Shown here: in pieces, positions 27,606-50,054 of the stretch
How positions within the stretch are numbered: the first letter of the stretch is position 1
How the letters are laid out: the number at the start of each line of letters is the position of its first letter
Source: Chloroflexota bacterium
GTDB taxonomy: Bacteria > Chloroflexota > UBA11872
DNA: 64,000 nucleotides
NCBI GenBank assembly: GCA_963667925.1
Contig: OY764080.1
Location: 2,379,226 to 2,443,225 of the forward strand
Reading direction: 5' to 3'
Translations under genes and position numbers: made by a program
Notes under the pieces: generated by a model
What the model saw: only the letters and a program-made list of their open reading frames with translations
What the model was told of the DNA's origin: nothing
Database searches by the model: none

Positions 27606-28412
27606 TTAGTCGCGCAGCGGGGCTGTGGGCTTCAGCGTGACAGTCTTCCCGGCCTCGGCGGCTATTCCGCAAAAGAGGTCGTACGCGGCGTCGAGCTGGA
27701 CCTTCGGATCTCCGCCGTCAGTGCTGCGAACCACGATGTCAACCGGCAGCCCATTCACACGCGACTGCCCCACGTATGCCTTCAGATAGGCTGCGGGAAC
27801 CTCCCGCATCACCCGCTGCATAAACGGCGAGGTCTCCGATTCGAATGAGTCGATGTAGACACGCATTCGGGCGGTTTGGGAGGAGAACATTCCGAGCAGC
27901 GCCGGCCGGATGTGCTTCTCAAAACAACCCTCAACTTCGCGCGGTGGGCCGGGCATCGACCAGATCGTCGCCTCACCAACCACGGTCGAAAAGCACGGCG
28001 CCCACCCAACCGGGTTGATGTGCACGGTGGATGCCCGCGGTATCGAGCCCATTTTGAGCCGAGGCGGTACCGACACCTCTTCGATCGTCATGTTTCGACG
28101 CTCGGCATAGTCTTCAATGACCTCGTACGGCGTATGCGTATCACTGCCTGCCACTGAGGCAATCGCATCAACCGTCATGTCATCGGGCGTTGGTCCAAGA
28201 CCGCCGGTGGTCAGAATCGCGCGCGGCTCGCGTGCCACGGCGGCGCGCAATTCCGCGATCAGCGCATCCAGGTCGTCGGCCAGCGCCGTAATGCGGCGAA
28301 CGTCGCCGCCGGCAACCGACACTTCGCCGGCCAACCAGTGAGAGTTCGTGTCCAGCACCAGCCCGGACACGAGTTCCGTTCCGATCGAGAAGATCTCAAC
28401 GTCGTCGTTCAT
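27606..28412 (-). CDS. CinA-like molybdopterin-binding (MoCF_biosynth) domain protein
   Basis: EIFSIGTELVSGLVLDTNSHWLAGEV...TTGGLGPTPDDMT matches the CinA N-terminal domain. Confidence 0.7.
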   Translation of the reverse strand: MNDDVEIFSIGTELVSGLVLDTNSHWLAGEVSVAGGDVRRITALADDLDALIAELRAAVAREPRAILTTGGLGPTPDDMTVDAIASVAGSDTHTPYEVIEDYAERRNMTIEEVSVPPRLKMGSIPRASTVHINPVGWAPCFSTVVGEATIWSMPGPPREVEGCFEKHIRPALLGMFSSQTARMRVYIDSFESETSPFMQRVMREVPAAYLKAYVGQSRVNGLPVDIVVRSTDGGDPKVQLDAAYDLFCGIAAEAGKTVTLKPTAPLRD

Positions 28413-30677: not shown

Positions 30678-31721
30678 ATGCAGTTTGCCATTGTCGGATA
30701 CGGCAAGTCGGGTCGCGCGTTCGGAAGGCTGATCCAGTCGTTGCCGGGCGCATCGGTCAGTTGCGTGGTCGACTCTGATCGACGTCGCGCCGAAGTGGGC
30801 GCCAGCGACTTGAACGCCGGGACGTGGAGCAACAACGCCCAGGTTGCCTTGCGTTCCGCGAGTGTGGACGCTGTCGTCATATCGACACCGCATGACTGCC
30901 ATGCGCAACTAGCCCGCGACGCGCTGGACCGCGGGCTGCATGTCCTCCTTGAACCGCCTCTGGCCCTACGTCATCCGGACGCGCAGCACGTCTTGGGCTA
31001 TGCACGAGCAGCCCGCACGGCCTTGGCCATTAACTTCTGGATGCGCGCGATTCCCGGCGTGCGTCGTATTCGAGGCCGCATTCCGCGTCCCACATTCGTT
31101 CAAGTCGAATGCGTCGTTCATCCGCTGTCCGAGTCCTGGATGGGGAAAGCTGAGCACGGCGGCGTCATGGGCTTGCTCGGGAGCCACGCATTGGACCTGA
31201 CCAGCCATCTCATGCAGTCGAAGCCACTCCACGCCCAGGCCATGGGGGGGCGTCACACGCGACGGGCGGCTCTTGCCGACACCGTGGCCATTGGCGTCCG
31301 ATTCGCGAACGGAGGACTTGCTCGTGTGCTTGTGGGCGAATTTGGCCGCGCCCGAGCCAGCACCCCGTGGCGCGCACTTGCAACCGACGGCGTAATCACG
31401 GCGACCGCCCGGGGCAGCTTGCCGCTTGGCGAATCTGGATCGAGTCACGATCGAGAAGCCGAATCTGCCTATTCAAATGAGGCGTGGGCGGCGCAGTGCG
31501 AGAGCCTTACGGCGTTCGCAAACGCCGCAGCCGGACGAGGCGAGCCCCTGGCCGGGGTCGACGACGGCGTACGAGCTGTCCACCTCGCCGATGCGGCCTA
31601 TGAAGCCATGGGTTCACGCCGGCGCGTATCAATCACCGCGACATCGCTACCTGATGCCGTCGGACCCGTCTACGGAGATGATTCCGTCGCGCACCGCCGT
31701 GACCACGGCTTCCGTGCGTGA
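30678..31721 (+). CDS. Gfo/Idh/MocA family oxidoreductase
   Basis: Rossmann N-terminus FAIVGYGKSG. 3' end overlaps the convergent response-regulator gene by 75 nt. Confidence 0.75.
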   Translation: MQFAIVGYGKSGRAFGRLIQSLPGASVSCVVDSDRRRAEVGASDLNAGTWSNNAQVALRSASVDAVVISTPHDCHAQLARDALDRGLHVLLEPPLALRHPDAQHVLGYARAARTALAINFWMRAIPGVRRIRGRIPRPTFVQVECVVHPLSESWMGKAEHGGVMGLLGSHALDLTSHLMQSKPLHAQAMGGRHTRRAALADTVAIGVRFANGGLARVLVGEFGRARASTPWRALATDGVITATARGSLPLGESGSSHDREAESAYSNEAWAAQCESLTAFANAAAGRGEPLAGVDDGVRAVHLADAAYEAMGSRRRVSITATSLPDAVGPVYGDDSVAHRRDHGFRA

Positions 31722-32303
31722 GCGAACCCGCAACTTGCCGTAGACACTGCTGAGGTGCGCCTCCACGGTCTTGGCCGAAACACCCAGGGATTCTGCGGCC
31801 TCGCGATTGGACGCGCCCTCGGCGACGAGTCGCAGTACGTCCAGTTCGCGCATCGTGAGCGGCTCGGCGACTGAGCGCCCCCCTCCTGAATCGGGCGCAG
31901 CCTCCGGCACTTCATGAAAGAAGGTCTGCCCGGCATGAACGCGCCGAACCGCGTCCGCCAGGCCCGCGGTGTCCAGATCCTTCAGCACATATCCCGCGAC
32001 TCCCGCGTCGCGCATGGATTGCACATAGTCGGACTGGCCGTAAGCCGAAACCACCAGGACTCGGGTCGCCGGCGCGATGTGTGCCAGGCGCCGAGCCAAC
32101 GCGGGCCCGCCGCCGGGAATACGAAAGTCAAGAAGGCAGACATCGGGTGAAGAACTCCGGCAGGCACGCTCCGCGGCGGCCGCGTCGCCGGCCGTTCCCA
32201 CAACTTCAACATCCGGGACATTGGCCAGCACCGCCGCGGTTCCTTCGCGAACCATGGCGTGGTCGTCCACAAGCAGCACGCGGATCGGGCGACTGCCGCT
32301 CAC
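31647..32303 (-). CDS. Two-component response regulator, NarL/LuxR family
   Basis: REC domain (IRVLLVDDHAMVREG) plus LuxR HTH (REAAESLGVSAKTVEAH). 4-nt overlap with the kinase gene. Confidence 0.9.
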   Translation of the reverse strand: MSGSRPIRVLLVDDHAMVREGTAAVLANVPDVEVVGTAGDAAAAERACRSSSPDVCLLDFRIPGGGPALARRLAHIAPATRVLVVSAYGQSDYVQSMRDAGVAGYVLKDLDTAGLADAVRRVHAGQTFFHEVPEAAPDSGGGRSVAEPLTMRELDVLRLVAEGASNREAAESLGVSAKTVEAHLSSVYGKLRVRSRTEAVVTAVRDGIISVDGSDGIR

Positions 32304-34837
32304 GAACGAGTGACTTCCGCTGGATGTAATGGAGCCTCAACCGTCAGGACGGTCGGCCCTCCGGGCTGAGAATCCACGTGCATGCGACCACCCAGGCGGC
32401 TGAACCGCTCCTGGAGGCCGGCAAGGCCCAGGTGCCCCACGGCCGCGTAGGCGGTCAGATCCGACGAAGCCGGGAAGCCACATCCGTCGTCCTGAATCGA
32501 TAACCGAATCGCGTCAGCCGCGCACGTAAGTCGAATTCGCACGCGGGACGCCTGCGAATGCCGCAGGGCATTGTTCAACGCCTCCTGGGCCGCGCGGTAA
32601 ATGTTCGTCTCTACGTCCGTGTCCGGTCGCTGAACGTCGGGCGTGCCGTCAATCTGGAGGTCAATTGTGAAGGGTGCGGCTCGCCCCGCCTCCTCCACAA
32701 GCCAGCGCAACGCCGCTTCCAATCCCAGGTCGTCCAATACCGGCGGGCGAAGTCGTTCGCAGATCTCCCGCAAATCCCCGGCGGCCGTATCCACCAGGTG
32801 CAGAAGCGCGTCACGGCTGCGGTAGGGCCCTGGCGCCGCCGAGCGCAAGGCGCGTTGCAGCAGCACCAGCTTCTGCAGCGGCTCGTCATGCAGATCGCGC
32901 GAAATACGTTGCCGCTCCGCCTCCAACATGCCGTTGACCTGGTCATACAGGTCACTCAGCGTCTGTTGGCTGTCTTGGAGACGCTGCGCCGTCTCGTCGA
33001 GTTCCCGGAGACGATCCTGCAACTGCCCCCACAGATCCACCCGCACCATGAAGCTGGCAAGTTGATTGGCCAACGCATCCAGCAAGTTGGCATCCGCCTG
33101 GCTGAACCCAAACGACTCTTCGCGAATCGAAGCCACCACATAGGCCACCACCGACTCATCGATCTTGCACGGAACGACGACCGCTGCAATTTCCGAAAGT
33201 CCGCCGCCGCCGGCAGCCACCACCGCCGAACGGACCTGGGCGTCATCCGGTGTGGGGGCCAGGTTGTTGAAATCGATGGCCACGAGCTTGTGCGGCGGAG
33301 TTGCACGCGTTACAGCGATCCAGTCAAGGCCACTCACGCGTCGGACCGGGCCCAGGACCGACCCGGCAAGCTGATCGATGGAGGCCGTCGACGCCAACGC
33401 GGCGCTGGCCGTTCGCATCACCCGTTGCGTGTCGTAGCTGTCCTGGTACACCCAACCGGACAACGCTCGAAGAACCAGCCAGCGCGCAAAGGGCATCGTC
33501 ACACCGATGCCAACCAGGGCCGCCGCCAGCATCCACACCACCGGCAACGCCCCGGCGCGGTCGGTCAGGTAGCGACCGATCACACCGACCAGCAGCGCGT
33601 AAAACGTAAACAGCAAGATCCAGGCCGCGCCGTGAAGGAACAGGGTTCGCAGTACCCGCTGGAACCGGATCCGCCACGTCGGAACCGCCACGTGGGCAAC
33701 CCCCAGCGCGGTGGCTCCGATAGCCAGCAGGGACACCGAATAAGGAAGGATCTCGGTACCGCTGACAACCGCCGGCACAAGCGAGAGCGCGGTTGGCGGC
33801 AGCGCTGCCGTCAGAAACGTGGCCAGTAGGACCCGAGCCACCCGCCGGTCACGGGGAAACGTGATATCCACAAGCGTGACCAGGCACTTGGCAAGGAGCG
33901 CGGTAAGCCCGAGGGCCGGAAGAAGCGCGACCGTCACCCAGGCCGCGTTATACAACTCCGGCCGGCCCTGGTAGGACGCCACGAGCACCGCCACTGGTCC
34001 TGCCAGAGCGGTAACCGCCAGGGCCGGGACGAACGGCACCATGAAGGCTGGTCCACGAATAGGACAGACGGCCGCGAACCACAGCAAGGCAACGCCCGTC
34101 GCGCCAGTCGCTGCAAAGACCAGCAGCGTCAGCGCGCCTTCGGCGTCCGGTGCCACGGAACCCAGCGAAAGAGCGATGGCCACGCCAAACAGGGCGGCCG
34201 TGGCCGCTCGCAGCAGTCGGCGCCGCCCGTAGAGAGCCACAACCGCACCGCCGGCCGCGAAGACCGTCGCCAGCACTAGCGTGGTGGCGCGCATGGCCGG
34301 ATCGAGACCCGGGAACGGGATCGCTAGACCGGTCTGTGGATCGGCGAGCGACCCTGGGTCAATCGCCGCGTTTAGCTCGACGGGCCGTCCAGTCGCTTCT
34401 CCCGCGGGCCCATTCCACGCAACCGCCTCGCCGGCGCTCAGCCCGGCGCGCCAGGCGGGCCCGCCCGGCGACACGCGCTCGATCAGCCACTGCCCCTGCT
34501 CGGCCGCTACGACCGTCGCCCCGTGCTCGAACGGCTGCATCGCAACCGTTGTGGCCAGGACCAGTGCCGAGACCCACAGCGTCAGACCGAACGCAACGGG
34601 AACAACCCGGCGCGGCCAAATTCGGGCCAGGCCGCCGCGCCGACGATTCTCCGCGGCGAGCCACTCACCGAGGCTCTGACGACGTGTGCGATTAGCGGGT
34701 CGAGCCAGCAGATTGCCCCCCCAGCAGCGGGCACTCCCAGCATACGCTCGCAACCCCGTCCCGACGCAGGCAACTTGCGGCCGCTGGTCTTCACCCTTTC
34801 CCAGGAAAGAGGCAGATGCCCCCGTCTTCGGCGACAA
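32300..34837 (-). CDS. Multi-TM sensor histidine kinase (HisKA_3 + HATPase_c; NarX/LiaS-like)
   Basis: Many N-terminal TM helices, a GAF-like middle region, H-box DLHDEPLQKL and an ATPase domain. The ORF-track start includes one of the upstream repeat copies, so the true start is probably <=34750. Confidence 0.8.
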   Translation of the reverse strand: MSPKTGASASFLGKGEDQRPQVACVGTGLRAYAGSARCWGGNLLARPANRTRRQSLGEWLAAENRRRGGLARIWPRRVVPVAFGLTLWVSALVLATTVAMQPFEHGATVVAAEQGQWLIERVSPGGPAWRAGLSAGEAVAWNGPAGEATGRPVELNAAIDPGSLADPQTGLAIPFPGLDPAMRATTLVLATVFAAGGAVVALYGRRRLLRAATAALFGVAIALSLGSVAPDAEGALTLLVFAATGATGVALLWFAAVCPIRGPAFMVPFVPALAVTALAGPVAVLVASYQGRPELYNAAWVTVALLPALGLTALLAKCLVTLVDITFPRDRRVARVLLATFLTAALPPTALSLVPAVVSGTEILPYSVSLLAIGATALGVAHVAVPTWRIRFQRVLRTLFLHGAAWILLFTFYALLVGVIGRYLTDRAGALPVVWMLAAALVGIGVTMPFARWLVLRALSGWVYQDSYDTQRVMRTASAALASTASIDQLAGSVLGPVRRVSGLDWIAVTRATPPHKLVAIDFNNLAPTPDDAQVRSAVVAAGGGGLSEIAAVVVPCKIDESVVAYVVASIREESFGFSQADANLLDALANQLASFMVRVDLWGQLQDRLRELDETAQRLQDSQQTLSDLYDQVNGMLEAERQRISRDLHDEPLQKLVLLQRALRSAAPGPYRSRDALLHLVDTAAGDLREICERLRPPVLDDLGLEAALRWLVEEAGRAAPFTIDLQIDGTPDVQRPDTDVETNIYRAAQEALNNALRHSQASRVRIRLTCAADAIRLSIQDDGCGFPASSDLTAYAAVGHLGLAGLQERFSRLGGRMHVDSQPGGPTVLTVEAPLHPAEVTRS

Positions 34838-35059: not shown

Positions 35060-35896
35060 CTAGACGGCCACCGCCTCCACCGCGGCCGGAGCCGCGTCGC
35101 CGCCGGCAAAACCGCAGAATTCCTCGTAGTCGATCAGTTCCGTGATCGTCGGAGCGTCGCCGCAAACGGGGCACTCCGGGTCACGCCGCAGCTTCAACTC
35201 ACGGAATTCCATCTCCATGGCGTCAAGCAGCAGCAAGCGTCCCGACAGCGAGTTGCCAATGCCCGCAATGAGCTTCAGCACCTCGGTAGCCTGGATCAGC
35301 CCGATCAGGCCTGGCAAAACCCCAAGCACGCCGGCCTCCGCGCAACTCGGCGCCATCTCCGGTGGGGGCGGCGTCGGGTAAAGGCAGCGGTAGCAGCCGG
35401 CGCCGGGCTCAAACACCGTCGCCATGCCCTCAAAGCGCATGACACTCCCATCCACCAGTGGCTTTCCGAGGAAGTAGGCGGCGTCGTTCGCGAGATACCG
35501 GGTGGGAAAGTTGTCGCAGCCGTTGACCACAATGTCGTACGGCTCCAGGATTTCAAACGCGTTGTCGGAGGTCAGCGGCTCGTCGTGGCGCACCACGGTC
35601 ACGTCCGGATTCAGGCCGGTTAACGTCGCTTCCGCCGAGGCGGTCTTCGGCATCCCAACCCGATCGTCGCGGTGCAGAATCTGTCGTTGCAGGTTTGAAC
35701 GGTCGACGGTATCGAAGTCCACCACGCCCAGCGTGCCCACCCCTGCGGCGGCCAGGTAATAGAGCACGGGCGAGCCAAGCCCGCCGGCGCCAATGGCCAG
35801 CACTTTGGCATTGAGAATCTTGGCCTGGCCGGCCGCCCCAACCTCGGGCAGCAACATGTGGCGGCTGTAACGTTGAACTTGCTCAACGGTGAACAC
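35060..35896 (-). CDS. ThiF/MoeB-family E1-like adenylyltransferase (MoeZ/MoeB-type, with two CxxC zinc motifs)
   Basis: LAIGAGGLGSPVLYYLAAAGVG..DFDTVDRSNLQRQ; CYRC and CPVC motifs. Confidence 0.85.
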   Translation of the reverse strand: MFTVEQVQRYSRHMLLPEVGAAGQAKILNAKVLAIGAGGLGSPVLYYLAAAGVGTLGVVDFDTVDRSNLQRQILHRDDRVGMPKTASAEATLTGLNPDVTVVRHDEPLTSDNAFEILEPYDIVVNGCDNFPTRYLANDAAYFLGKPLVDGSVMRFEGMATVFEPGAGCYRCLYPTPPPPEMAPSCAEAGVLGVLPGLIGLIQATEVLKLIAGIGNSLSGRLLLLDAMEMEFRELKLRRDPECPVCGDAPTITELIDYEEFCGFAGGDAAPAAVEAVAV

Positions 35897-35926
35897 GGTC
35901 GAATACCTTCCAGCTAATGCCGGCGC

Positions 35927-36304
35927 TTAGTGCCCGGCGGGCGGTTCCTCGGTTTCGTAGCCGGCCTCGGCCCACTCGGTCATGCCGCCGGCCATGTTGT
36001 ACGCCTCGGTCACATTCAACGCCCGGGCCATCTGCGTCGCAACCGCGCTGGTCTGCCCGACGTTGCAAATGAACAGCAGGGGCTTCCCGGACGGGATGAC
36101 TTCGACCGGACGCGCCAGGATGTCGTCCAACGGCACATAATCGGCGCCTGGCATGGCCGGCGCGTGAAACTGCGTGCGGACGTCCACCACGTCCACCTCA
36201 CCGTTCTCGATCATCTCCTTCGCCTTGTGAATATCGACGTCGAAGTCAGGCGATCCAGGCAGACCCATTGTTTTGCACCATTCGGAAGTTCCGTCTACGC
36301 TCAA
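35927..36304 (-). CDS. Single-domain rhodanese sulfurtransferase
   Basis: Catalytic-Cys loop FICNVGQTS. Sits immediately upstream of the ThiF gene in the same orientation (split MoeZ arrangement). Confidence 0.8.
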   Translation of the reverse strand: MSVDGTSEWCKTMGLPGSPDFDVDIHKAKEMIENGEVDVVDVRTQFHAPAMPGADYVPLDDILARPVEVIPSGKPLLFICNVGQTSAVATQMARALNVTEAYNMAGGMTEWAEAGYETEEPPAGH

Positions 36305-36423
36305 GCATCGCGCCGTGAGGCCAACAGGTCAACGCAGAATTGTGGCGTCTCCGCGAGGTTTCCTACTGACGGCGCCCACCTTGACAAGGCTATGATCAGG
36401 CACGCACCTGTCACGACACCCTT

Positions 36424-38025
36424 GTGAACACCACCGAACTCGCATCCCGCCTCGCGGCGCCTGAAGTCCCTGACGACGTGGCCGCCAGGCTGCGCCGGCG
36501 GCTCGACGGATTGGACGGCAGCCTGGAAGGCCAGGAACGTCTGGTGCGTGCACTGGATTTACCGTGGGCGGCCAGCAGCGCCGCTCGGCCGCAAATCAGC
36601 GAACTTCACGCGCACCTGGTCGACGACCTCTTTCTCACGGACGAGGTGGCCGACCTGCTCTGCGACCACCTGGTGGTGCGTGAGCACCAGCTCACGTCAG
36701 CGCCCGATGCCACCGGACCGCGAGCGCTGCTTTCTCTTGTCGGCCCGCCGGGTGTCGGCAAATCGCATATTGCCCGTGAGGTCGCGGCGCAACTGGACCT
36801 GCCGCTGGCAACGATTCGCCTGGACCGCTTGGCTTCCCCCGACGAATTATTTGGGAATGAGCAGGCCCCCGGCGAAATCATGCGAGCAATTGAGCGGCTT
36901 GGGCAGAGTGAAGTCGTCCTCCTACTCGAGGAGATTGACGCGATTGGCGGCGGCTGGCCGACGACGTCGAACCAGAATCAGAGAATCAGCGACCGCTGGG
37001 CGGCGGCCCGCGCCACGCTCTTGGCCGCGCTCACGGACGCTGCGGCCCGCCGGCAGTTCCAGGACCGATTCTTCGACGTCCCGTTTGACTTGTCCCGAGC
37101 TCTCGTAATTACGACGGCACGTTGGTTGCCCGACCTTCCACCGTTGGAGCGCGGTCGGCTGGACATCGTGGAACTCGCCGGCTACGTGGACGATGACAAG
37201 GTGGCTATTGCGCGTGACTCATTGGCGCCAGCCATGCTGCGCGAATACAACGTGCCCTCGGACGACCTCGAAATCGAGGACGACGCGCTGTCCGCGCTGG
37301 TGCGCAGCTACACGGTCGAGCCGGGTATCGACGCACTCGACGGTCTGATTCGTCAGGTAGTCCGCCGTGCTCTGACGCGGCGCGCGCTCCAGGGTGAGTC
37401 TGGTCCCGTGTCCATAGCCATCGAAGACCTGGGAGCCACGGTCGGTCGGCCTACGCAGCTTGGCTTGCATCGCCGGCGGCGCGAGACTCCGGGAATGACC
37501 ACCGGAGCGGTGGTGCGGCGCAGCGGCGGGGTGCTTGGACAGATCGAGGCCGTGCAGATGCCCGGCGCCGGACGGATTCGGATTCTGGATACCTCCGGCG
37601 CGGACCTGTCCAGCCGCTACGCGATCGTGCCTTCGTACGTCCGGTCGCGGCTCTCGGACTTGGCCGTCTCGGCCCGGTCGCTCGAAGAGTTCGATACCGA
37701 CTTGCTCGTTCCTGCCAGTGACCTGCCGGGCGACGAAGGCTCCCTCGCCATCGCGGCGGCCATCGCCATGGTTTCCCTGATGCGCGACCGGGCGGCGGAT
37801 CCCGAGTTTCTGGCGATCGGTGGAATGACGGCGCATGGACACGTCCGTCGCGCGCAAGGCGTGCAGGCCAAGATTCTGGCGGCGCACCGCGGCGGCATTC
37901 GCCGGATCGTACTTCCGCGTCAGAACGAGCACGACCTGGACAGCATCCCCGCGCAGCTGCACGACGCCATCACCTTCATCCCCATCGACGAGGCCGGCCA
38001 GGGCATCAACGTCGCCCTCCGCTAG
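36424..38025 (+). CDS. Lon-like ATP-dependent protease paralog lacking the LON N-terminal domain (AAA+ module + S16 proteolytic domain)
   Basis: Lon pre-AAA helical region (DLPWAAS); Walker A GPPGVGKSH; Walker B-like LLLEEID (Asp to Glu at the first acidic position); proteolytic-domain Ser (GDEGSLAIAAAIA) and Lys (VQAKILAAHRGGIRRIVLP) both present. Confidence 0.75.
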   Translation: MNTTELASRLAAPEVPDDVAARLRRRLDGLDGSLEGQERLVRALDLPWAASSAARPQISELHAHLVDDLFLTDEVADLLCDHLVVREHQLTSAPDATGPRALLSLVGPPGVGKSHIAREVAAQLDLPLATIRLDRLASPDELFGNEQAPGEIMRAIERLGQSEVVLLLEEIDAIGGGWPTTSNQNQRISDRWAAARATLLAALTDAAARRQFQDRFFDVPFDLSRALVITTARWLPDLPPLERGRLDIVELAGYVDDDKVAIARDSLAPAMLREYNVPSDDLEIEDDALSALVRSYTVEPGIDALDGLIRQVVRRALTRRALQGESGPVSIAIEDLGATVGRPTQLGLHRRRRETPGMTTGAVVRRSGGVLGQIEAVQMPGAGRIRILDTSGADLSSRYAIVPSYVRSRLSDLAVSARSLEEFDTDLLVPASDLPGDEGSLAIAAAIAMVSLMRDRAADPEFLAIGGMTAHGHVRRAQGVQAKILAAHRGGIRRIVLPRQNEHDLDSIPAQLHDAITFIPIDEAGQGINVALR

Positions 38026-38252: not shown

Positions 38253-41200
38253 ATGCGCCGCGGGCGGACATGCCGGTTTCGACGCGGAGCGAACGTTACT
38301 GTGAGTGTGTCTACACACTCAGGCCATCCAGGCAGAGGTCTTGTGCGGGGCGCTGGTGGGCGCGACGTGGCCTGGCGACTAGCCCTGTGGGTACGGGCGG
38401 CACGACGCGTGCGGCGGACGGCGCATCGCTTCCGGTCAGTGGCCGCTGCGGGTTTCTGGCTGGCGCTGTCGACCGCCGCCTGCGGGCCGAGCGAGCCGGA
38501 ACACCTGGGGGCGTCCTCGCACGTTCATCGGCTGTCGAACCCCACCTGGCGGGTCGCGCCGTCCATCGAAGAGCAGATCTTCCGGTCCACGACGATCGTG
38601 CGCGCGACGCTGCAGTCGGCGACGGCGGCGGTCGAGACGCTGCCCAGCGATCCGGGGGTGGCGCCCACCTACCAGGCGGTGCAGGAACTGCGCTTCACGG
38701 TGCACGAGTACCTGAAGGGGAGCGGCTCAACCGAACTGCTGGTGGTGGTGCGCGGCGGCCACGCCTACCAGACGGAGGCCGAGGCCCGCGACTTCTTGGA
38801 CTACCAGGTGCAGGCGCGGGTCACGACCTGGGACGAGCGGCAGGCGGTGCTCTTCCTGGAGGCGCCGTCGTCGCCGTACACCCAGGCCGCCGGCGGCGGC
38901 GAAGCGGCGGGCAGCTCCGCGACCACCTCGCCGGTCGTTTTGCAGTTCACCCGCTCGAACTATGGCCAGCCGCCGTGGGCCTACAGCGTGGACACGCTAC
39001 GACCGGCCTGGCTGCCCGCGGAGAACACGCCGGCTGAGGGGGAGGCGCCGACGGCCTTCATCACGGACGGCGCGCAATCGCCCTCGCCGACGATCACGCT
39101 GGCCGACCTGCGGGGCCGGATCGCGGCGCTGGCGGCGGAGCTGCAGGCGGGGGCAGGCGTCGACGGATTCCGGGAGTGCATTCTCACCAGAATCGGATAT
39201 GAACGGAGTCGCCGCGCCGACCCGTGGACGCCGCCTCTGGAAGCCGCGACCGTGGGCTCCGGGTCGGCGGCCGGGACTGACGTGAGTCGTGCGGCATATA
39301 GATATGACGATCCGCAATACAGTCGCTACTGGCTCAGCGGCTCAGACTCGGGGCGCTTCCATGCCGTAGTCATCGATGCCGATGGCGTGCCGAGCACTGG
39401 ATATGACCATTCGCTGGCTACCACCCGGCCCCTGCCGAACGGCACGTATCACGTGCGTTACAACTGGCAACACCCTTCGGAAATCCCCTGTGGCTTTGCG
39501 CCCGATGATTCCTACGATGATTTCACCGTCACGGTCACGGCGCCTACCGGGACGGTGCACGAGGCGTTCTTCGATCCGGCGGCGCTGGGCAGCGGGGTCG
39601 TCGGGCGGGACGCCGCCCACGGGGTGCTGGCGCCGGCGGCGGTCGGCACGGCCGGCGGCGCCGCGGGCGCCGCAGCCAGCAGCGGGGCCAGCACGACGGC
39701 CGCGACCCTGCGGCGGCTGACCTGGGACGCGGGGCAGTTGCGGCTGGACGTGAGCGGTACGACCCTGGCCGGGCAGCAACTGGAGCTGATCCGCCTGGAC
39801 GGGACCGTGGGGCTGACGCTGCGCGGCGACGCCGCCGTCGCCACGGCCACCGCCGACGGCCACGAACTGCGCTGGCCGGTCTGCGAGCAACCCTGGCAAC
39901 CGGGCGAGCGCCTGATGCTGCGAATCAGTCCCGTCCCGGCGGGCGACTCGCCGGCAGCCCCGGCCTGCCCCGGCGCCCCCGCCCTGCCCACCGTGACGGT
40001 CGACACGACGGCCCCGGCGGCCGGGGCGCCCGCAACCCTGACGGCGGCGGTCCCGAGCGACGCCGGCGCCGCGACCTACCAGTGGCAGCGCGACGTGGGC
40101 GGCGTCTGGACGCCGGTGGACGCGGCCGGCGCGGCCTACGAAGCGCGCGCGCTGACCGCCATGACCGGCAGCTGGCGCGTGCAGGCGCGCTACGCCTCCG
40201 GGGCCGTGGCCCACTCGGCGCCGGTGACGCTGACCTGGCCGGCCGCGGCCACGCCCCCGTGCCGCAACGGGATAACGGTCCCCACGCCCACAACCAATAC
40301 CGGCCTGGTGCAGGACTGCACGGCCTTGCTTGAGGCGCGGGACGCGCTGGCCGGGCCCGGCCGCCTGAACTGGGACGGGTCGCGGGCGCTCAGCGCCTGG
40401 ACCGGGGTGAGCGTGGGCGGCACGCCGCAACGGGTGACGGCGCTGCGGCTGGGCGCGCAGGGCCTGACCGGCCCCGTGCCGGCGGCGCTGGGCGCGCTGA
40501 CCCAGTTGACGGCGCTGGACCTGCGCGGCAACGCCCTGACCGGCGCGCTGCCCACCGCCCTCGGCGCGCTGACGCGGCTGACCGACCTCCACCTGGCCGG
40601 CACCCGGCTGACCGGCTGCCTGCCGGCCACCCTAGCCGGGGTGGCGACCACGGACGCGGCGGCGCAGGGGCTGGCCGCCTGCCAGGCGGGCCCGGCATTC
40701 GGGGCGCCCCGCTACGCGTGGATCGTGCCGGCCGGTCTGCCGCCGGGCGCAGCCATTGGCCAGGTGCAGGCGACCGATCCGAACGGCGGGACCGTGACCT
40801 ACGCGCTCACGGCGGGCAATGACGCCAGCGTGTTCCAACTCGACGCGGCCACCGGCATCCTGTCGGTGGCGGGGACGCTGCCGGCGGGCGGCGCCGGATT
40901 GACGGTGACCGCCACGGACGCCCAGGGGGGCGCCACCCGCGTGCCGCTGGTCGTGGCGGTGGCCGACGACGCCCAGCGATCACCGCCGGTGTTCCCGGCC
41001 GCCGGCTGGACCTTCCACGTGGCCGAGAACGCGGGCGTGGAGACGGTCGTTGGAACAGCTGCGGCCCGCGACCTCGACGGCGGCCCGCTGACTTACGCCC
41101 TCACAGCCGGCAACACGGCGGGGACTCTTGCGCTCGACCCCAGCTCCGGGCTGCTCACCGTCGCCGGGCCGTTGCACCACGCCACCACCCCCCACTACAC

Positions 41201-41279
41201 CCTGACGCTTACGGCCACCGACGCCCATGGCTTAACTGCGACCGCCACCGTGACGATCACCGTGACGGTCGTCGTCTAG
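38253..41279 (+). CDS. Large secreted/surface protein with Ig-like, plant-type LRR (LxxLxLxxNxLTGxLP) and cadherin-like repeat domains
   Basis: Signal-like N-terminus (AAGFWLALSTAACG); LRR block GLTGPVPAALGALTQLTALDLRGNALTGALPTALGALTRLTDLHLAGTRLTGCLP; two cadherin-like repeats (ATDPNGGTVTYALTAGNDASVFQLD.., ARDLDGGPLTYALTAGNTAGTL). Ends TITVTVVV. Confidence 0.7.
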   Translation: MRRGRTCRFRRGANVTVSVSTHSGHPGRGLVRGAGGRDVAWRLALWVRAARRVRRTAHRFRSVAAAGFWLALSTAACGPSEPEHLGASSHVHRLSNPTWRVAPSIEEQIFRSTTIVRATLQSATAAVETLPSDPGVAPTYQAVQELRFTVHEYLKGSGSTELLVVVRGGHAYQTEAEARDFLDYQVQARVTTWDERQAVLFLEAPSSPYTQAAGGGEAAGSSATTSPVVLQFTRSNYGQPPWAYSVDTLRPAWLPAENTPAEGEAPTAFITDGAQSPSPTITLADLRGRIAALAAELQAGAGVDGFRECILTRIGYERSRRADPWTPPLEAATVGSGSAAGTDVSRAAYRYDDPQYSRYWLSGSDSGRFHAVVIDADGVPSTGYDHSLATTRPLPNGTYHVRYNWQHPSEIPCGFAPDDSYDDFTVTVTAPTGTVHEAFFDPAALGSGVVGRDAAHGVLAPAAVGTAGGAAGAAASSGASTTAATLRRLTWDAGQLRLDVSGTTLAGQQLELIRLDGTVGLTLRGDAAVATATADGHELRWPVCEQPWQPGERLMLRISPVPAGDSPAAPACPGAPALPTVTVDTTAPAAGAPATLTAAVPSDAGAATYQWQRDVGGVWTPVDAAGAAYEARALTAMTGSWRVQARYASGAVAHSAPVTLTWPAAATPPCRNGITVPTPTTNTGLVQDCTALLEARDALAGPGRLNWDGSRALSAWTGVSVGGTPQRVTALRLGAQGLTGPVPAALGALTQLTALDLRGNALTGALPTALGALTRLTDLHLAGTRLTGCLPATLAGVATTDAAAQGLAACQAGPAFGAPRYAWIVPAGLPPGAAIGQVQATDPNGGTVTYALTAGNDASVFQLDAATGILSVAGTLPAGGAGLTVTATDAQGGATRVPLVVAVADDAQRSPPVFPAAGWTFHVAENAGVETVVGTAAARDLDGGPLTYALTAGNTAGTLALDPSSGLLTVAGPLHHATTPHYTLTLTATDAHGLTATATVTITVTVVV

Positions 41280-41499: not shown

Positions 41500-44535
<3,036 letters not shown>

Positions 44536-44539
<4 letters not shown>

Positions 44540-45732
44540 CCACCGCCTACTTCGATTGCCTGGCCGGCGCCAGCGGCAACATGATCCTCGGCGCCCTGCT
44601 CGACGCCGGCCTCGACAAAACCCGCCTCCTCGCCGAACTCCGCAAGCTCGACCTCCCCCCCTGGAAACTCCGCGACGAACGAGTCCAACGCGGCCTCATC
44701 CAGGCCCGCCTGGTCGACTTCGATATCCAAGACCGCGGCCACCACCACCCCTACACCGACATCGACGCCCGCATCGCCGCCGCCGACCTCAAACCCCAAA
44801 TCCGGGATGAAGCCCGCCAAATCTTCCGCAACCTCGCCGAAGCCGAAGCCCACGTCCACGGCACCCCCGTAAACCAGGTCGAGTTCCACGAAGTCGGCGC
44901 CGCCGACTCCGTGCTCGATGTCGTCGGCGCCGCCGTTGCCTTCCACCTGCTGGGCATCAATCACGTCGTCGTATCCCCCATCAACACCGGCAGCGGCTGG
45001 GTTGAAACCGCCCACGGCCGCCTCCCCGTCCCCGCCCCCGCCACCACCCAACTCCTCGCCGGCAGCGGAGCCGTCGCCTACGGATCCGATGTCAAGTTCG
45101 AACTCCTCACCCCCACCGGCGCCGCCGTCCTCACCCATGCGGCCCACGCCTTCGGCCCCCTGCCCCCCATGCGCGTGCTCCAAACCGGCTACGGCGCCGG
45201 AACCGCTCGCCTCGCCATCCCCAACGTCCTCCGCGTCACCCTCGGCCAGCCCGTCCAGTCCAACCAGGCCGACACCGCCACCGTCATCGAAACCAACATC
45301 GACGACATGAACCCCGAGGCCTACGAATACGTCGCCGCCCGCCTCTTCGCCGCCGGCGCCCTCGACGTCTGGACCGCCCCCATCGTCATGAAAGGCGGCC
45401 GCCCCGCCACCCAACTCTGCGCACTCGGCTCAAACGACACCGCCGCCGCCCTCATCGACCTGATCCTGACCGAAACCACCACCCTCGGCGTCCGTACCTA
45501 TCAGGTCCAGCGAACCAAGCTCCAACGCGCCAGCTACAGCGTCACCACCCCCTACGGCGACATCCGCGTCAAAGCCTCCTACCTCCACGGAACCCTGCGC
45601 GACGCCGCCCCCGAGGCCGCCGACTGCCGCCGCATCGCCGCCGACCAGGGAGTCCCCTGGCGCGACGTGTACGATGCCGCTCGATCCGCCGGACGCGCCG
45701 CCGCGCCCCCCAGTCCCAACCCCGCGGATTAA
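44536..45732 (+). CDS. larC: Nickel-insertion protein LarC (DUF111, pyridinium-3,5-bisthiocarboxylate mononucleotide nickel chelatase)
   Basis: MTTAYFDCLAGASGNMILGALLDAG.. LarC N-terminus; ATGA overlap with larB. Confidence 0.85.
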
Positions 45733-47478: not shown

Positions 47479-49492
47479 GCCCACTACCTCAGCGGCAATC
47501 CACGAGAGAATGCCATGCCTCCACACTTCATCATCGACTCCCACCAACCTTTCTGATTCAAACCCGGCATCATTGACCCCAACGACCGCCCAACTCGCAA
47601 CCCGAGGTGACGGCTTGATCACGAACCCACTGGATCGACGCGCACCCGACGCCGGATATCAGGGTTCGCACCGCGCGTACGATTCCGTCGTGTTGCCCGA
47701 CGTCCTCATTCCGGCGCGCGACGGCGTGCAACTGGCTGCCGATATCTACCTGCCGACCCTCAACGGCCGCCAGGTCGACGGGCAGTTTCCGGCGCTCATC
47801 GAGCGCACCCCGTACCTCAAGGACTCCGGCCGCTACGCACGCAAGGCGCACTGGTACGCACGTCGCGGCTACGCCGTCGTCATCAACGACGTCCGTGGCC
47901 GCGGTCGCTCCGGCGGTGAGTGGTATCCCTTTGCCAGAGAAGCCCCCGACGGCTACGACGCCGTGGAGTGGATCGCGGTCCAGCCCTGGTGCAACGGCCG
48001 CGTCGGCACCATGGGCAACTCCTACGCCGGGTCCGACCAGAGCGCCCTGGCCACCCTCAACCCGCCGCACCTGCGCGCCCAGGTCGTCGGCCAGGGCGCC
48101 AGCAACTACCTGATCTCGTCCATGCGCCAGGGCGGCGCCCTGGAACAGCGCTTCATCAGCTATGCCTACCGCATGGCCGTCACCAGCCAGGAAGCCGGCG
48201 CCGACCCCGACCTTGAGCGCGTCCTGCGCGCCGAGTTCGAACGCGTGCCCGAGATCCTGGGCCCACCCCTGCGCTTCCGCCCAGGCCGCACCGCACTCCG
48301 CTTGCTTCCGCTCTACGAACAATGGGCCTGGGACATCCTCACCCAAGGCGGCAGTGGGCCCTACTGGTCCCAGCGCGGCTACACCATCGATGAGTATTGG
48401 CACGAGCACGCCGACGTCCCGGTCCTCTTCCAAAGCGGCTGGTACGACACCTACCCCCGCAGCGCCATCGCCAACTTCCACGCCCTCCGCCGCCTCAGGT
48501 CCAGTCCCATGTCGTTGCTCCTGGGCCACTGGCGCCACGGCGAGCCCACGACCGAGGAGACCTCCGCCGGCGACGTGGACTTAGGCCTCGAATCCGCCCT
48601 CCCCCTCTACGACGATCTGCGCTTGCGCTTCTTCGATCACCACCTCAAGGACCTGGAAACCGGTCTCGACCGCGAGCCGCCTGTCCGCTACTTTGTCATG
48701 GGCGGACAACTCGGCCGACCGCCCGCCGACCTCGAAGGGCGCCTCTGGCACGGCGGCCGCTGGGAATCGGCCGACAAATGGCCGCCGCCCGCCGCTGCCG
48801 AAACCGCCCTCTTCCTGCAGACCGACGGCTCGCTCACCAGCGAAACACCCAACAAGCCGACCGGCCCAACCCGCTTCACCTACGACCCGCGCAATCCGGT
48901 TCCCACCACCGGCGGTTCCATCAGCGCCGCCGAGGAAGCCCTGCCATCCGGCGGCTTCGATCAGCGCGGCCAGCCCGGCCGCTTCCACGGCCACCACGAC
49001 ACCCTCTCCCTGGCCAGCCGCCCCGACGTCCTCAGCTTCGAGACTGCTCCGTTCGACGCGTCGTTCGAGATCGCCGGCCCCGTCGAGGTCGTGCTTTTCG
49101 CCTCCAGCAGCGCCATCGACACCGACTTCACCGCCAAGCTGCTCGACGTATATCCGCATAGCCACGCCACGCCCGGCGGGTACGAGCTCAACCTGGCCGA
49201 CAGCATCCTCCGCGCCCGCTACCGCAACGGCTACGACGGCGAAGAGTTCCTGCAGCCCGAGGAGATCTACGAGTTCCGCATCGTCCTCTACCCCACCGCC
49301 AACCGCTTCGCCCCCGGCCACCGGCTTCGCGTGGACATCTCCTCGTCCAACTATCCCCGCTTCGACGCCAACCCCAACACCGGGGAGCCGCTTGGCCAAT
49401 CCCGGCGCGTCGAGATGGCCCACCAGGCCGTCTACCACGACCCCGACAACCCCAGCCGCCTGCTCGTCCACGTCCGGCCTGTCGCGGAATGA
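47477..49492 (+). CDS. CocE/NonD family alpha/beta hydrolase (S15 X-Pro dipeptidyl-peptidase-like)
   Basis: VLIPARDGVQLAADIYLP..ALIERTPY..GNSYAG and a C-terminal beta-sandwich. Start uncertain (ATG 47477 or 47510). Confidence 0.8.
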   Translation: MPTTSAAIHERMPCLHTSSSTPTNLSDSNPASLTPTTAQLATRGDGLITNPLDRRAPDAGYQGSHRAYDSVVLPDVLIPARDGVQLAADIYLPTLNGRQVDGQFPALIERTPYLKDSGRYARKAHWYARRGYAVVINDVRGRGRSGGEWYPFAREAPDGYDAVEWIAVQPWCNGRVGTMGNSYAGSDQSALATLNPPHLRAQVVGQGASNYLISSMRQGGALEQRFISYAYRMAVTSQEAGADPDLERVLRAEFERVPEILGPPLRFRPGRTALRLLPLYEQWAWDILTQGGSGPYWSQRGYTIDEYWHEHADVPVLFQSGWYDTYPRSAIANFHALRRLRSSPMSLLLGHWRHGEPTTEETSAGDVDLGLESALPLYDDLRLRFFDHHLKDLETGLDREPPVRYFVMGGQLGRPPADLEGRLWHGGRWESADKWPPPAAAETALFLQTDGSLTSETPNKPTGPTRFTYDPRNPVPTTGGSISAAEEALPSGGFDQRGQPGRFHGHHDTLSLASRPDVLSFETAPFDASFEIAGPVEVVLFASSSAIDTDFTAKLLDVYPHSHATPGGYELNLADSILRARYRNGYDGEEFLQPEEIYEFRIVLYPTANRFAPGHRLRVDISSSNYPRFDANPNTGEPLGQSRRVEMAHQAVYHDPDNPSRLLVHVRPVAE

Positions 49493-49517
49493 ACTCCGGC
49501 TGCCTGGAGGAAGGAAC

Positions 49518-50054
49518 ATGACCGAGCTAAAGATCGGAAACACCCGCTTGACGCTCGTCCAGGGGGACATCACCGTTCAGCAGGTGGACGCCATCGTGAA
49601 CGCCGCCAACGCGGCCCTCAGGGGCGGCGGAGGCGTGGATGGCGCCATCCACCGCGCCGGCGGACCCGACATCATGGCCGAATGCCGCCGGATCGGCGGC
49701 TGTCCTACCGGCGAAGCGGTCCGCACCACCGCCGGCCGCCTCCCCGCCAACCACGTCATCCACGCCGTCGGTCCCATCTGGACCAGCGGCAACGTCGGCG
49801 AACCTGATCTGCTCGCCTCCGCCTACCGCTGCTCGCTCCAGATCGCCGCCGCCCACGGCGCGCGCACCGTCGCCTTCCCCTCCATCAGCACCGGCGTCTA
49901 CGGCTTTCCCAAGGACCTGGCCGCCGAAACGGCCCTCAGCGCCGTCACCGAAGTCCTCCCGAATCTAGACCTCGTCGAAGTCCGCTTCGTAGTCTTCGGC
50001 GACAAAGACCTCGCGGCCTACCGGCAGGCGATGCAGGCCAGGGCTTCCGAGTGA
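49518..50054 (+). CDS. Macro-domain protein (O-acetyl-ADP-ribose deacetylase / ADP-ribose-binding, YmdB-like)
   Basis: LVQGDITVQQVDAIVNAANAALRGGGGVDGAIHRAGG macro motif; SD GGAGGAAGG 5 nt upstream of the ATG. Confidence 0.85.
   Translation: MTELKIGNTRLTLVQGDITVQQVDAIVNAANAALRGGGGVDGAIHRAGGPDIMAECRRIGGCPTGEAVRTTAGRLPANHVIHAVGPIWTSGNVGEPDLLASAYRCSLQIAAAHGARTVAFPSISTGVYGFPKDLAAETALSAVTEVLPNLDLVEVRFVVFGDKDLAAYRQAMQARASE

Follow-up and report, generated by a model that had tools for sequence, protein, structure and literature searches.

A split rhodanese–ThiF gene pair and a divergently transcribed, LonA-derived short Lon in a Chloroflexota lineage

Gene content of the locus

The window considered here is a stretch of 64,000 nt from a Chloroflexota bacterium (UBA11872; contig OY764080.1, positions 2,379,226-2,443,225), and all coordinates below are window positions. 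It carries a single-domain rhodanese gene followed by a gene for a ThiF/MoeB-type E1-like adenylyltransferase and, transcribed divergently from this pair, a gene for a short Lon-type AAA+ protein. The open reading frame (ORF) list, Pfam matches and motif reading confirm all three ORFs, together with the identities (rhodanese, ThiF E1-like and Lon-type AAA+) that a preliminary description of this DNA had given them. The evidence assembled below favours, with moderate confidence, a housekeeping E1 module for sulfur carriers lying beside a lineage-specific derivative of LonA, their adjacency being inherited rather than mechanistic. The features of the locus are as follows.

35060-35896, minus strand: ThiF/MoeB-type E1-like adenylyltransferase, 278 aa, GTG start; Pfam ThiF, 269.7 bits
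35897-35926, minus strand: 30-nt spacer from the rhodanese TAA stop (35929-35927) to the ThiF GTG, with a Shine-Dalgarno-like GGAAGG at 35911-35906
35927-36268, minus strand: single-domain rhodanese, 113 aa from ATG 36268; Pfam Rhodanese, 44.6 bits
36269-36423, no strand: divergent intergenic region of 155 nt with blocks conserved across the clade
36424-38025, plus strand: short LonA-derived protein, 533 aa, GTG start; Pfam AAA, Lon_lid and Lon_C
36742-36765, plus strand: Lon Walker A, GPPGVGKS, residues 107-114, intact
36847-36879, plus strand: Lon pore-loop-1 region, LFGNEQA-PGEI, residues 142-152, five residues deleted relative to LonA
36913-36939, plus strand: Lon Walker B, VVLLLEEID, residues 164-172, Glu in place of the Mg-binding Asp
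36946-36993, plus strand: Lon pore-loop-2 region, Trp kept, with an insertion of ~14 residues (GGGWPTTSNQNQRISD)
37105-37341, plus strand: Lon sensor-1, Arg-finger and sensor-2 region (TTARW; LERGRLD; YTVEPGIDALD)
37726-37887, plus strand: Lon protease active site, Ser440 (PGDEGSLAIA) and Lys483 (GVQAKILAAH)

The rhodanese–ThiF pair

The ThiF protein contains a Gly loop (GAGGLG, residues 36-41), two CxxC motifs (CYRC, 168-171, and CPVC, 242-245), a crossover-loop Cys within SCAEAGVLG (184-192) and a DYEEFCG linker motif (256-262), and has no rhodanese domain of its own. That domain is encoded by the upstream gene, whose active-site loop CNVGQTS (36047-36067) includes Cys68. The roles of the Gly loop, the zinc-binding CxxC motifs, the crossover-loop Cys and the rhodanese Cys are general knowledge for MoeB, ThiF and rhodanese proteins. 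As a mechanical ORF the rhodanese gene runs to TTG 36304 (35927-36304); ATG 36268 is most likely the true start, since the homologues found at every locus of the clade (108-113 aa, 64-100% identity) begin at its equivalent.

For both genes the best NCBIfam model is PRK08762 (NF006444), which describes a 387-residue MoeB with an N-terminal rhodanese domain and carries a curated cut-off of 449 bits. ThiF matches profile positions 121-384 with 415.3 bits and the rhodanese matches positions 16-117 with 37.2 bits, each gene alone failing the cut-off; joined in silico, the two give one continuous match of 461.1 bits (residues 10-375 against profile positions 16-384 of 387), and only this joined sequence passes. 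The remaining models failed. MoeZ (NF005902) reached 366 bits with ThiF alone and 389 with the joined sequence against a cut-off of 647, the match ending at position 287 of 392, and UbaA, the fourth-best NCBIfam match to ThiF, reached 342 bits with ThiF alone and 341 joined against 450. The joined sequence scored 227 against 275 bits with the ThiF equivalog model and 219 against 377 bits with the MoeB model TIGR02355. Matches of ThiF in the Protein Data Bank (PDB) to E. coli MoeB (1jw9), Uba4 and E. coli ThiF all lie at ~183-190 bits and do not discriminate between pathways. Because the joined match is colinear with PRK08762 while the other models fail, and because the rhodanese of MoeZ is C-terminal, the pair is, as far as its profile matches and gene order indicate, a fission form of the N-terminal-rhodanese MoeB architecture and not MoeZ. 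The label "MoeZ-type" used in the preliminary description thus named the wrong sub-architecture.

The window pair shares with PRK08762 MoeB both the catalytic motifs and the domain order, rhodanese first and ThiF/MoeB second, and differs from it in being two genes rather than a single polypeptide; a fused form of 398 aa occurs in Dormibacteraeota (L078, L081). With MoeZ/MoeBR, known from the Mycobacterium-type CysO-CysM-Mec+ system, it has in common the E1 core and the DYEEFCG linker, which in MoeZ precedes the rhodanese. In MoeZ, however, the rhodanese is fused at the C-terminus, whereas in the window it is a separate upstream gene, and the window lacks the CysO, CysM and JAMM genes of MoeZ systems.

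In the window, the rhodanese and ThiF ORFs share a reading frame, the TAA and ten further codons lying between them. A fusion made by read-through or recoding was nevertheless ruled out by the TAA stop itself, by the ThiF gene having its own GTG preceded 9 nt upstream by the Shine-Dalgarno-like GGAAGG, and by a spacing that is out of frame in L004, L005 and L006. Since the spacing is out of frame in these relatives, the fission can be taken as real and the shared frame as coincidental. The two-gene split, with a separate Shine-Dalgarno sequence and start codon for ThiF, is kept in more than 40 genomes.

A scan for ThiF across one genome per GTDB species yielded 80 loci, with flanks of up to 8-10 kb per side (less at contig ends), and a quick neighbour-joining tree was built from 88 ThiF sequences. 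The Lon-linked E1s form a single clade in this tree. A second Chloroflexota clade has the split rhodanese and ThiF genes without Lon (L047, L048, L052, L054, L056, L057, L062-L065, L067, L069-L071, L073, L074). A large group of E1s is flanked by CysO-like carriers, some of them directly upstream or fused, by a CysM-type cysteine synthase and by a JAMM protease (L043, L046, L053, L059, L060, L066, L068, L072, L077, L079, L080 and others), and E1s 65-72% identical to the window ThiF adjoin such genes (L043, L046, L053, L059, L072, L080 and others). Gene neighbourhoods of this make-up are the classic ones for sulfur carriers, as surveyed by Iyer et al. in 2006 (PMC1779556). Firm clustering of ThiF with the MoeB or MoeZ of known biosynthetic pathways had been named beforehand as evidence against a link between E1 and Lon, and it is largely what was found: the PRK08762 MoeB model is passed and the nearest outgroup E1s sit in CysO-CysM-JAMM clusters, with the MoeZ model, like UbaA, failing. 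A separate observation concerns L072 (9722-12748), as well as L066, L068, L080, L046 and L059, in which a CysO-like beta-grasp domain lies directly upstream of, and is apparently fused to, ThiF; next come a further CysO that stands free, a gene for a CysM-type cysteine synthase and one for a JAMM protease, which makes this a variant of the CysO system with two carriers.

The absence of a nearby carrier gene, already remarked upon in the preliminary description, holds throughout the 64-kb window: no ORF of at least 55 aa ends in Gly-Gly in a plausible frame, no Gly-Gly-terminated beta-grasp ORF is present, and tblastn searches with CysO-like, ThiS-like, MoaD, CysM and JAMM queries gave no match with an E-value below 0.3 (the ThiS and MoaD sequences of E. 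coli served as extra probes only). The flanks of L001-L042 (up to 8-10 kb per side) likewise contain no ThiS, MoaD or CysO carrier and no JAMM gene. Among the large window ORFs scanned with Pfam, no gene for molybdenum cofactor (Moco), thiamin or cysteine synthesis was seen. Those ORFs include housekeeping genes (EF-G, M42 peptidase, SbcCD-like, GGT, Crp, TruB, IF-2 and NusA), sugar and oxidoreductase genes, enolase-LarB-LarC, a halogenase-like FAD enzyme and transporters, and a CinA-like protein with a MoCF_biosynth domain is encoded at 27606-28412. A riboswitch upstream of the rhodanese and ThiF genes that would name the pathway (Moco, thiamin pyrophosphate or S-adenosylmethionine) was considered and rejected, as no Rfam family reaches threshold anywhere in the window. 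An anti-phage defence context, with a CBASS Cap2-like E1 or a BrxL-like Lon, was also rejected, PADLOC giving only generic E1-Rossmann and AAA matches.

It is proposed that the ThiF subunit adenylates the C-terminal Gly of at least one small sulfur carrier of the MoaD, ThiS, CysO or TtuB type encoded elsewhere in the genome, and that the Cys68 persulfide of the rhodanese would supply the sulfur with which the acyl-adenylate is converted to a thiocarboxylate. Adenylation followed by thiocarboxylate formation is the established chemistry of MoeB, MoeZ and TtuC. The module would then serve a housekeeping sulfur relay, feeding molybdopterin and/or thiamin, cysteine or thio-tRNA synthesis. The window ThiF belongs to the same E1-like family as TtuC, which acts with TtuB in Thermus, and UbaA, which acts with the SAMP proteins in Haloferax; in both organisms several carriers depend on one E1, which supports protein conjugation as well and has a protease as partner, and the single Thermus E1 serves TtuB, MoaD and ThiS (PMC3980101). 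These systems differ from the window in that their protease partner is a JAMM metalloprotease (plus the proteasome in archaea) and not Lon, and the window E1 falls below the UbaA cut-off with no gene for a carrier, a ubiquitin-like protein (Ubl) or JAMM nearby.

The short Lon and its family

The window Lon consists of an N-terminal helical bundle (residues 1 to ~95), an AAA+ module (~100-325) and an S16 protease domain (~335-533). Pfam detects no LON_substr_bdg (PF02190), the LAN domain of LonA, which bears out the missing N-domain of the preliminary description. In a phmmer search of the PDB, residues 14-529 align with LonA structures, among them T. thermophilus LonA (7p6u, over 275-772), M. 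taiwanensis LonA (257-766) and B. subtilis 3m6a. Since residues from 14 onwards align in this way, the first ~95 residues correspond, on the alignment and the structural model, to the helical bundle found ahead of the AAA+ module in LonA and are no new domain. The parts lost relative to LonA are the LAN domain and the long helix. An AlphaFold2 model built from a 16-sequence alignment has a pLDDT of 86 and a pTM of 0.84, residues 177-188 being the sole low-confidence or disordered segment, and Foldseek superposes it on the N-truncated LonA chains 4ypl and 6u5z with TM-scores of 0.84-0.85. The endopeptidase La model TIGR00763, by comparison, gives 225.5 bits against a cut-off of 608, with a match that begins at profile position 303.

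The motifs of this protein are preserved unevenly. Two earlier readings, Glu instead of Asp at the first Walker B position (LLLEEID in the translation) and the retention of the catalytic Ser and Lys, are both upheld, and the second, catalytic acidic residue of Walker B is also kept, as is the Arg-finger position (LERGRLD, residue 245). Further defects go beyond the Walker B Glu of the preliminary description. Pore-loop 1 has lost five residues including its Tyr (GHRRTY(I/V)GA-PG becoming GNEQA-PG in HMMER alignments to 7p6u and 3m6a), the sensor-1 Asn is replaced by Arg (residue 233), the sensor-2 Arg is replaced by Asp, and Gly, rather than Pro or Asp, directly precedes Ser440. The insertion GGGWPTTSNQNQRISD after the pore-loop-2 Trp is specific to the window's subclade. 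Ser440 and Lys483 are separated by 42 residues, a spacing reported for all Lon subfamilies, while the residue before the catalytic Ser is Pro in LonA and Asp in LonB (PMC9569914). In M. taiwanensis LonA (MtaLonA), substrate contacts are made by Tyr397 in pore-loop 1 and by Trp431 in pore-loop 2, and degradation depends on each of the two; ATP is positioned by Arg484, the Arg finger, and by Arg541 of sensor II, which contacts its phosphates (PMC8503904). Since pore-loop 1 and sensor II are lost, these residue changes make it unlikely that the short Lon works as a processive unfoldase.

Comparison with the described Lon subfamilies sets the protein apart from each of them. LonA is its best sequence and fold match from the bundle preceding the AAA+ module to the C-terminus, with Lon_lid, Lon_C and the Ser-Lys spacing in common; it differs from LonA in lacking the LAN domain, the long coiled-coil helix and pore-loop 1, in its Walker B EE, in its replaced sensors and in the Gly before Ser, so that neither the profile hallmarks of LonA (608 bits and PF02190) nor an intact AAA+ machinery is found. 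LonC of Meiothermus taiwanensis offers a possible analogy, in that ATPase residues are lost and nucleotide may still be bound. Without ATP, LonC breaks down unfolded substrates only, and it can also serve as a chaperone (PMC3391209, PMC13069640), and its protease and ATPase components have been described as LonB-like (PMC9569914). In contrast to LonC, Walker A and the second Walker B Glu are still present in the window protein, and the 60 PDB sequences that it matched at E <= 0.001 include no chain of LonC, the top matches by sequence and by fold all being LonA. The LonBA proteins (the LonB type of Bacillus subtilis) are similar in having no LonA N-terminal region and a LonA-like active centre (PMC9569914); they differ in being presumed membrane-anchored and confined to Firmicutes, whereas the short Lon has a soluble helical N-terminus and degenerate ATPase motifs. 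Because no LonC chain was matched, because the LonB and spore-Lon models give only 31-43 bits (31-36 for spore_lonB and spore_lon_C of NCBIfam) and because the fold is LonA-like, the protein is neither LonC nor LonBA. By sequence its origin appears independent of LonC, and it is best described as a previously unnamed, lineage-restricted, degenerate Lon derived from LonA.

A word-indexed search retrieved ~35 short relatives with 44-98% identity, all of them from Chloroflexota metagenome-assembled genomes (MAGs) where named, beyond which matches drop directly to canonical LonA of ~800 aa at ~30-33% identity. An exhaustive HMMER search of 1.84 billion representatives clustered at 50% identity ranked only a few clusters of the short family (P0016, P0028, P0121, P0122 and fragments) above ordinary LonA, and an exact look-up found the window's own sequence not on record. 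As far as these searches reach, the family is confined to one Chloroflexota lineage, and the short Lon is presumably, as it had been called, a paralog of a canonical lonA. Independently of this family, the HMMER matches included P0123-P0130 and others, proteins of 889-1675 aa in which two or three LonA-type AAA+ modules stand in tandem ahead of one Lon_C protease domain, with no LAN N-domain. The lids appear as repeated Lon_lid matches in Pfam. Reading of the P0127 sequence showed that both of its modules come with a helical bundle of their own, a Trp-containing pore loop and intact Walker A and B motifs. To our knowledge, no Lon with such an architecture has been described. The idea that these long proteins, which outscore LonA, are E1–Lon fusions was rejected, since they contain neither ThiF nor rhodanese and their score is inflated by the repeats.

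A motif table of 40 family members reveals a graded pattern of loss. The pore-loop-1 deletion is shared by all of them. The window's subclade has E or D as the second acidic residue of Walker B, where most other lineages have N or G; the Arg-finger position is occupied by R, Y, S, A or Q, and the Walker A Lys is missing in L005, L030, P0027, P0029 and P0030. At the protease site, the catalytic Ser is replaced by Ala in L005, L008, L029, L030, L032, L035, L041 and P0121, and the catalytic Lys is lost in P0027 and P0029. Because these key residues vary among members, neither ATP hydrolysis nor proteolysis is, as predicted from the motifs, conserved across the family. The gene is nevertheless under purifying selection. 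Pairwise Nei-Gojobori estimates of the ratio of nonsynonymous to synonymous divergence (dN/dS) are 0.10-0.14 for Lon in the window's subclade, close to those of the neighbouring histidine kinase and SGL genes, and 0.18-0.36 in subclades with mixed Ser and Ala at the catalytic position. The corresponding ThiF values are 0.02-0.09, those of Lon being ~3-8 times higher, and Lon identity falls to 39% where ThiF identity is at least 80%. A pseudogene or decaying Lon is ruled out by an intact ORF in ~40 genomes and by dN/dS of 0.10-0.36.

The short Lon would accordingly be seen as a fast-evolving LonA derivative that has lost its N-domain and pore-loop 1 and whose ATPase site is eroding. It probably still binds nucleotide and assembles in a Lon-like manner, with no ATP-driven unfoldase activity. 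In the window genome, nucleotide binding and peptidase activity are predicted because Walker A, one Walker B Glu, the Arg finger and the Ser-Lys dyad are kept, and by analogy with LonC the protein is most likely an energy-independent or nucleotide-gated peptidase for unfolded or short substrates. In sister lineages with Ser replaced by Ala, it could be only a non-catalytic binder or scaffold.

Conserved adjacency and its interpretation

Context look-ups from six Lon homologues, ranging from 77% to 44% identity, found rhodanese and ThiF divergent to Lon in all six. Among the ThiF loci with at least 80% identity to the window protein, all 34 have the rhodanese gene and 32 the short Lon, the other two (L011, L022) being cut by a contig edge inside or beside the rhodanese gene; of the 46 loci with ThiF identity of 72% or less, none has Lon within the flank (up to 10 kb per side). 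The divergent pair, for which the preliminary description had also allowed coincidence, is conserved in every genome with a short Lon, and the lack of synteny in relatives that had been named beforehand as counter-evidence is not seen. All these genomes belong to one lineage, and the wider region is also colinear within the clade (LCP, a GFO/IDH oxidoreductase and enolase-larB-larC), for which reasons the conserved synteny is only weak evidence for function. The adjacency of a housekeeping module and a LonA derivative would have arisen once in the ancestor of this Chloroflexota lineage and been inherited since.

An alignment of the intergenic region from 19 clade members contains two sets of conserved blocks. 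The first comprises AAGCATCGCGCC (36303-36314) and GTCAAC (36328-36333), which on the minus strand read TTGACC-17 nt-GATGCT and form a candidate promoter for rhodanese and ThiF. The second comprises CTACTGAC (36363-36370) and GCTATGATC (36389-36397), the latter ~27 nt upstream of the Lon GTG and containing TATGAT, likely the -10 element of Lon. Since a strict scan for sigma-70 and terminator consensus sequences over 34.8-38.3 kb found nothing, both promoter assignments are inferred from the alignment. Indels between ATGATC and the Lon GTG are not multiples of three, which identifies the GCTATGATC block as a DNA element rather than coding sequence, and the upstream ATG within it was rejected as a Lon start, being out of frame in the window and in L012. 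No shared palindromic operator was seen in the alignment.

Several of these observations weigh against a merely inherited adjacency. The junction between rhodanese and Lon is unbroken at 38 of the 38 short-Lon loci (32 reached via ThiF and 6 via Lon homologues), while both outer flanks have changed several times across the clade, which makes this junction the most stable feature of the neighbourhood. The histidine kinase–response regulator pair downstream of ThiF occurs at most loci and is absent from L006, L007, L028, L031, L038 and L041, with other genes in L029 and L033, and the gene after Lon is variously SGL, a cadherin/leucine-rich-repeat protein (window, L009), a DUF3179 protein or enolase. 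The intergenic blocks, moreover, are kept even between lineages whose Lons are only ~40% identical. Junction stability and conserved blocks are together compatible with selection for co-regulation, and hence with a functional link, so that coupling of the E1 module and Lon is possible.

Such a link could take the form of a short Lon dedicated to the rhodanese–ThiF pair as an accessory. It would be a chambered peptidase or a binder, and the shared divergent promoter region would co-regulate it with the pair. Its tasks might include maturation of a carrier precursor with residues beyond Gly-Gly, product release, or turnover of damaged or self-conjugated E1 and carrier. Work of this kind is done in other systems by JAMM proteases (Mec+, QbsD and the Thermus JAMM). 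A JAMM gene lies within a few kb of the closest outgroup E1s and none lies near this E1, so the niche of an associated peptidase would be vacant, and protease partners of E1/carrier systems have precedent (PMC1779556, PMC3980101). The proposal is nonetheless unlikely, as synteny within a single lineage with a colinear neighbourhood may reflect inheritance and there is no carrier gene nearby to process. In addition, Lon evolves several times faster than ThiF by dN/dS, and Ala takes the place of the catalytic Ser in seven or more syntenic relatives, with P0027 and P0029 also lacking the Lys, so that a peptidase role cannot be the conserved function.

Less probable still is a role for the short Lon as another general protease with full ATP-dependent activity, engaged in bulk quality control and unrelated to its neighbours. 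The window subclade does keep the Walker A Lys, the second Walker B Glu, the Arg finger, the pore-loop-2 Trp and the Ser-Lys dyad, its model superposes on active LonA cores, and purifying selection is evident (dN/dS ~0.1). However, the deletion of pore-loop 1 with its Tyr and the replacement of the sensor-1 Asn and sensor-2 Arg affect positions with known roles in MtaLonA (PMC8503904), no N-domain is available for substrate selection, and the endopeptidase La model scores 225 rather than 608 bits.

A bolder variant, in which the pore-loop-less Lon partners the E1 as a receptor, peptidase or dead scaffold that binds carrier, Ubl or conjugates, forming a bacterial E1–Lon axis in place of JAMM or proteasome, is very doubtful. 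The tagging logic raised in the preliminary description, with the E1 activating a conjugated Ubl and Lon degrading the tagged proteins, is the most improbable reading: the same E1 family does support conjugation in Thermus (TtuC/TtuB) and Haloferax (UbaA/SAMP; PMC3980101), UbaA ranks among the best models for ThiF and synteny is conserved, but the UbaA cut-off is clearly missed, no Ubl gene or isopeptidase such as JAMM exists in the 64 kb or in the flanks of relatives, Lon lacks the N-domain and the pore-loop-1 Tyr needed for substrate engagement and translocation (PMC8503904), its ATPase residues are not conserved, and relatives have lost the protease Ser. None of the papers listed by a full-text literature search on Lon protease, ThiF, rhodanese and ubiquitin-like proteins ties Lon to an E1-like enzyme, and the survey of E1-like neighbourhoods by Iyer et al. 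in 2006 reports JAB peptidases as partners and never mentions Lon (PMC1779556).

The surroundings of the three genes show additional features of their own. Directly downstream of ThiF, after a 222-nt gap, lie genes for an 845-aa multi-pass membrane histidine kinase with HisKA_3 and a weak PDZ-like match (32300-34837, minus strand) and a LuxR-type response regulator (31647-32303, minus strand); being present in most but not all clade members, they stand outside the conserved triad. On the other side, a 1008-aa cadherin/Ig-like/leucine-rich-repeat protein (38253-41279, plus strand), encoded in a stretch of 71-73% GC, is inserted between Lon and SGL relative to most relatives, the same 3.3-kb gap occurring in L009; it resembles eukaryote-like proteins of sponge symbionts, and many of the related MAGs are sponge-derived. 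Enolase, LarB (AIRC) and LarC (Ni_insertion) genes at 42465-45732 (plus strand) overlap stop-to-start in an apparent operon, which is found downstream of the short Lon throughout the clade (also in L001, L005-L008 and L041), with rhodanese–ThiF ~6.5 kb away; the scanned ORFs of the window showed neither LarA nor a LarE-like enzyme for sulfur insertion. Synonymous divergence from L009, the closest genome (30678-35896 compared), is mosaic, with 0.03-0.05 for ThiF, rhodanese and Lon, 0.11 for SGL, 0.46 for the histidine kinase and 1.4-1.5 for the response regulator and GFO oxidoreductase, which points to a recombination boundary in or beside the kinase gene. GC skew is -0.2 to -0.3 at 42-50 kb and +0.1 to +0.23 at 50-62 kb, with a cumulative minimum near 50 kb. 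The ORFs at 47570-48538 (minus), 48581-49573 (minus) and 50950-52644 (plus) have no Pfam match.

For the E1 and rhodanese pair, the implication is one of routine sulfur metabolism, in which the fission form is only a detail of annotation; automatic pipelines will under-annotate the split pair, because each half alone fails the MoeB equivalog model. The short Lon appears to represent a second route, independent of LonC, by which Lon sheds its unfoldase machinery. Its family forms a graded series, in which every member has lost the N-domain and the pore loop, most have lost ATPase residues and some the protease Ser, while purifying selection is kept, and this series is suited to asking what a Lon ring does without pulling or, in some lineages, cutting. 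Graded residue loss under purifying selection, combined with an invariant pairing with an E1, merits specialist attention, and the pairing, if functional, would give the prokaryotic sulfur-carrier and Ubl systems a protease partner of a new kind.

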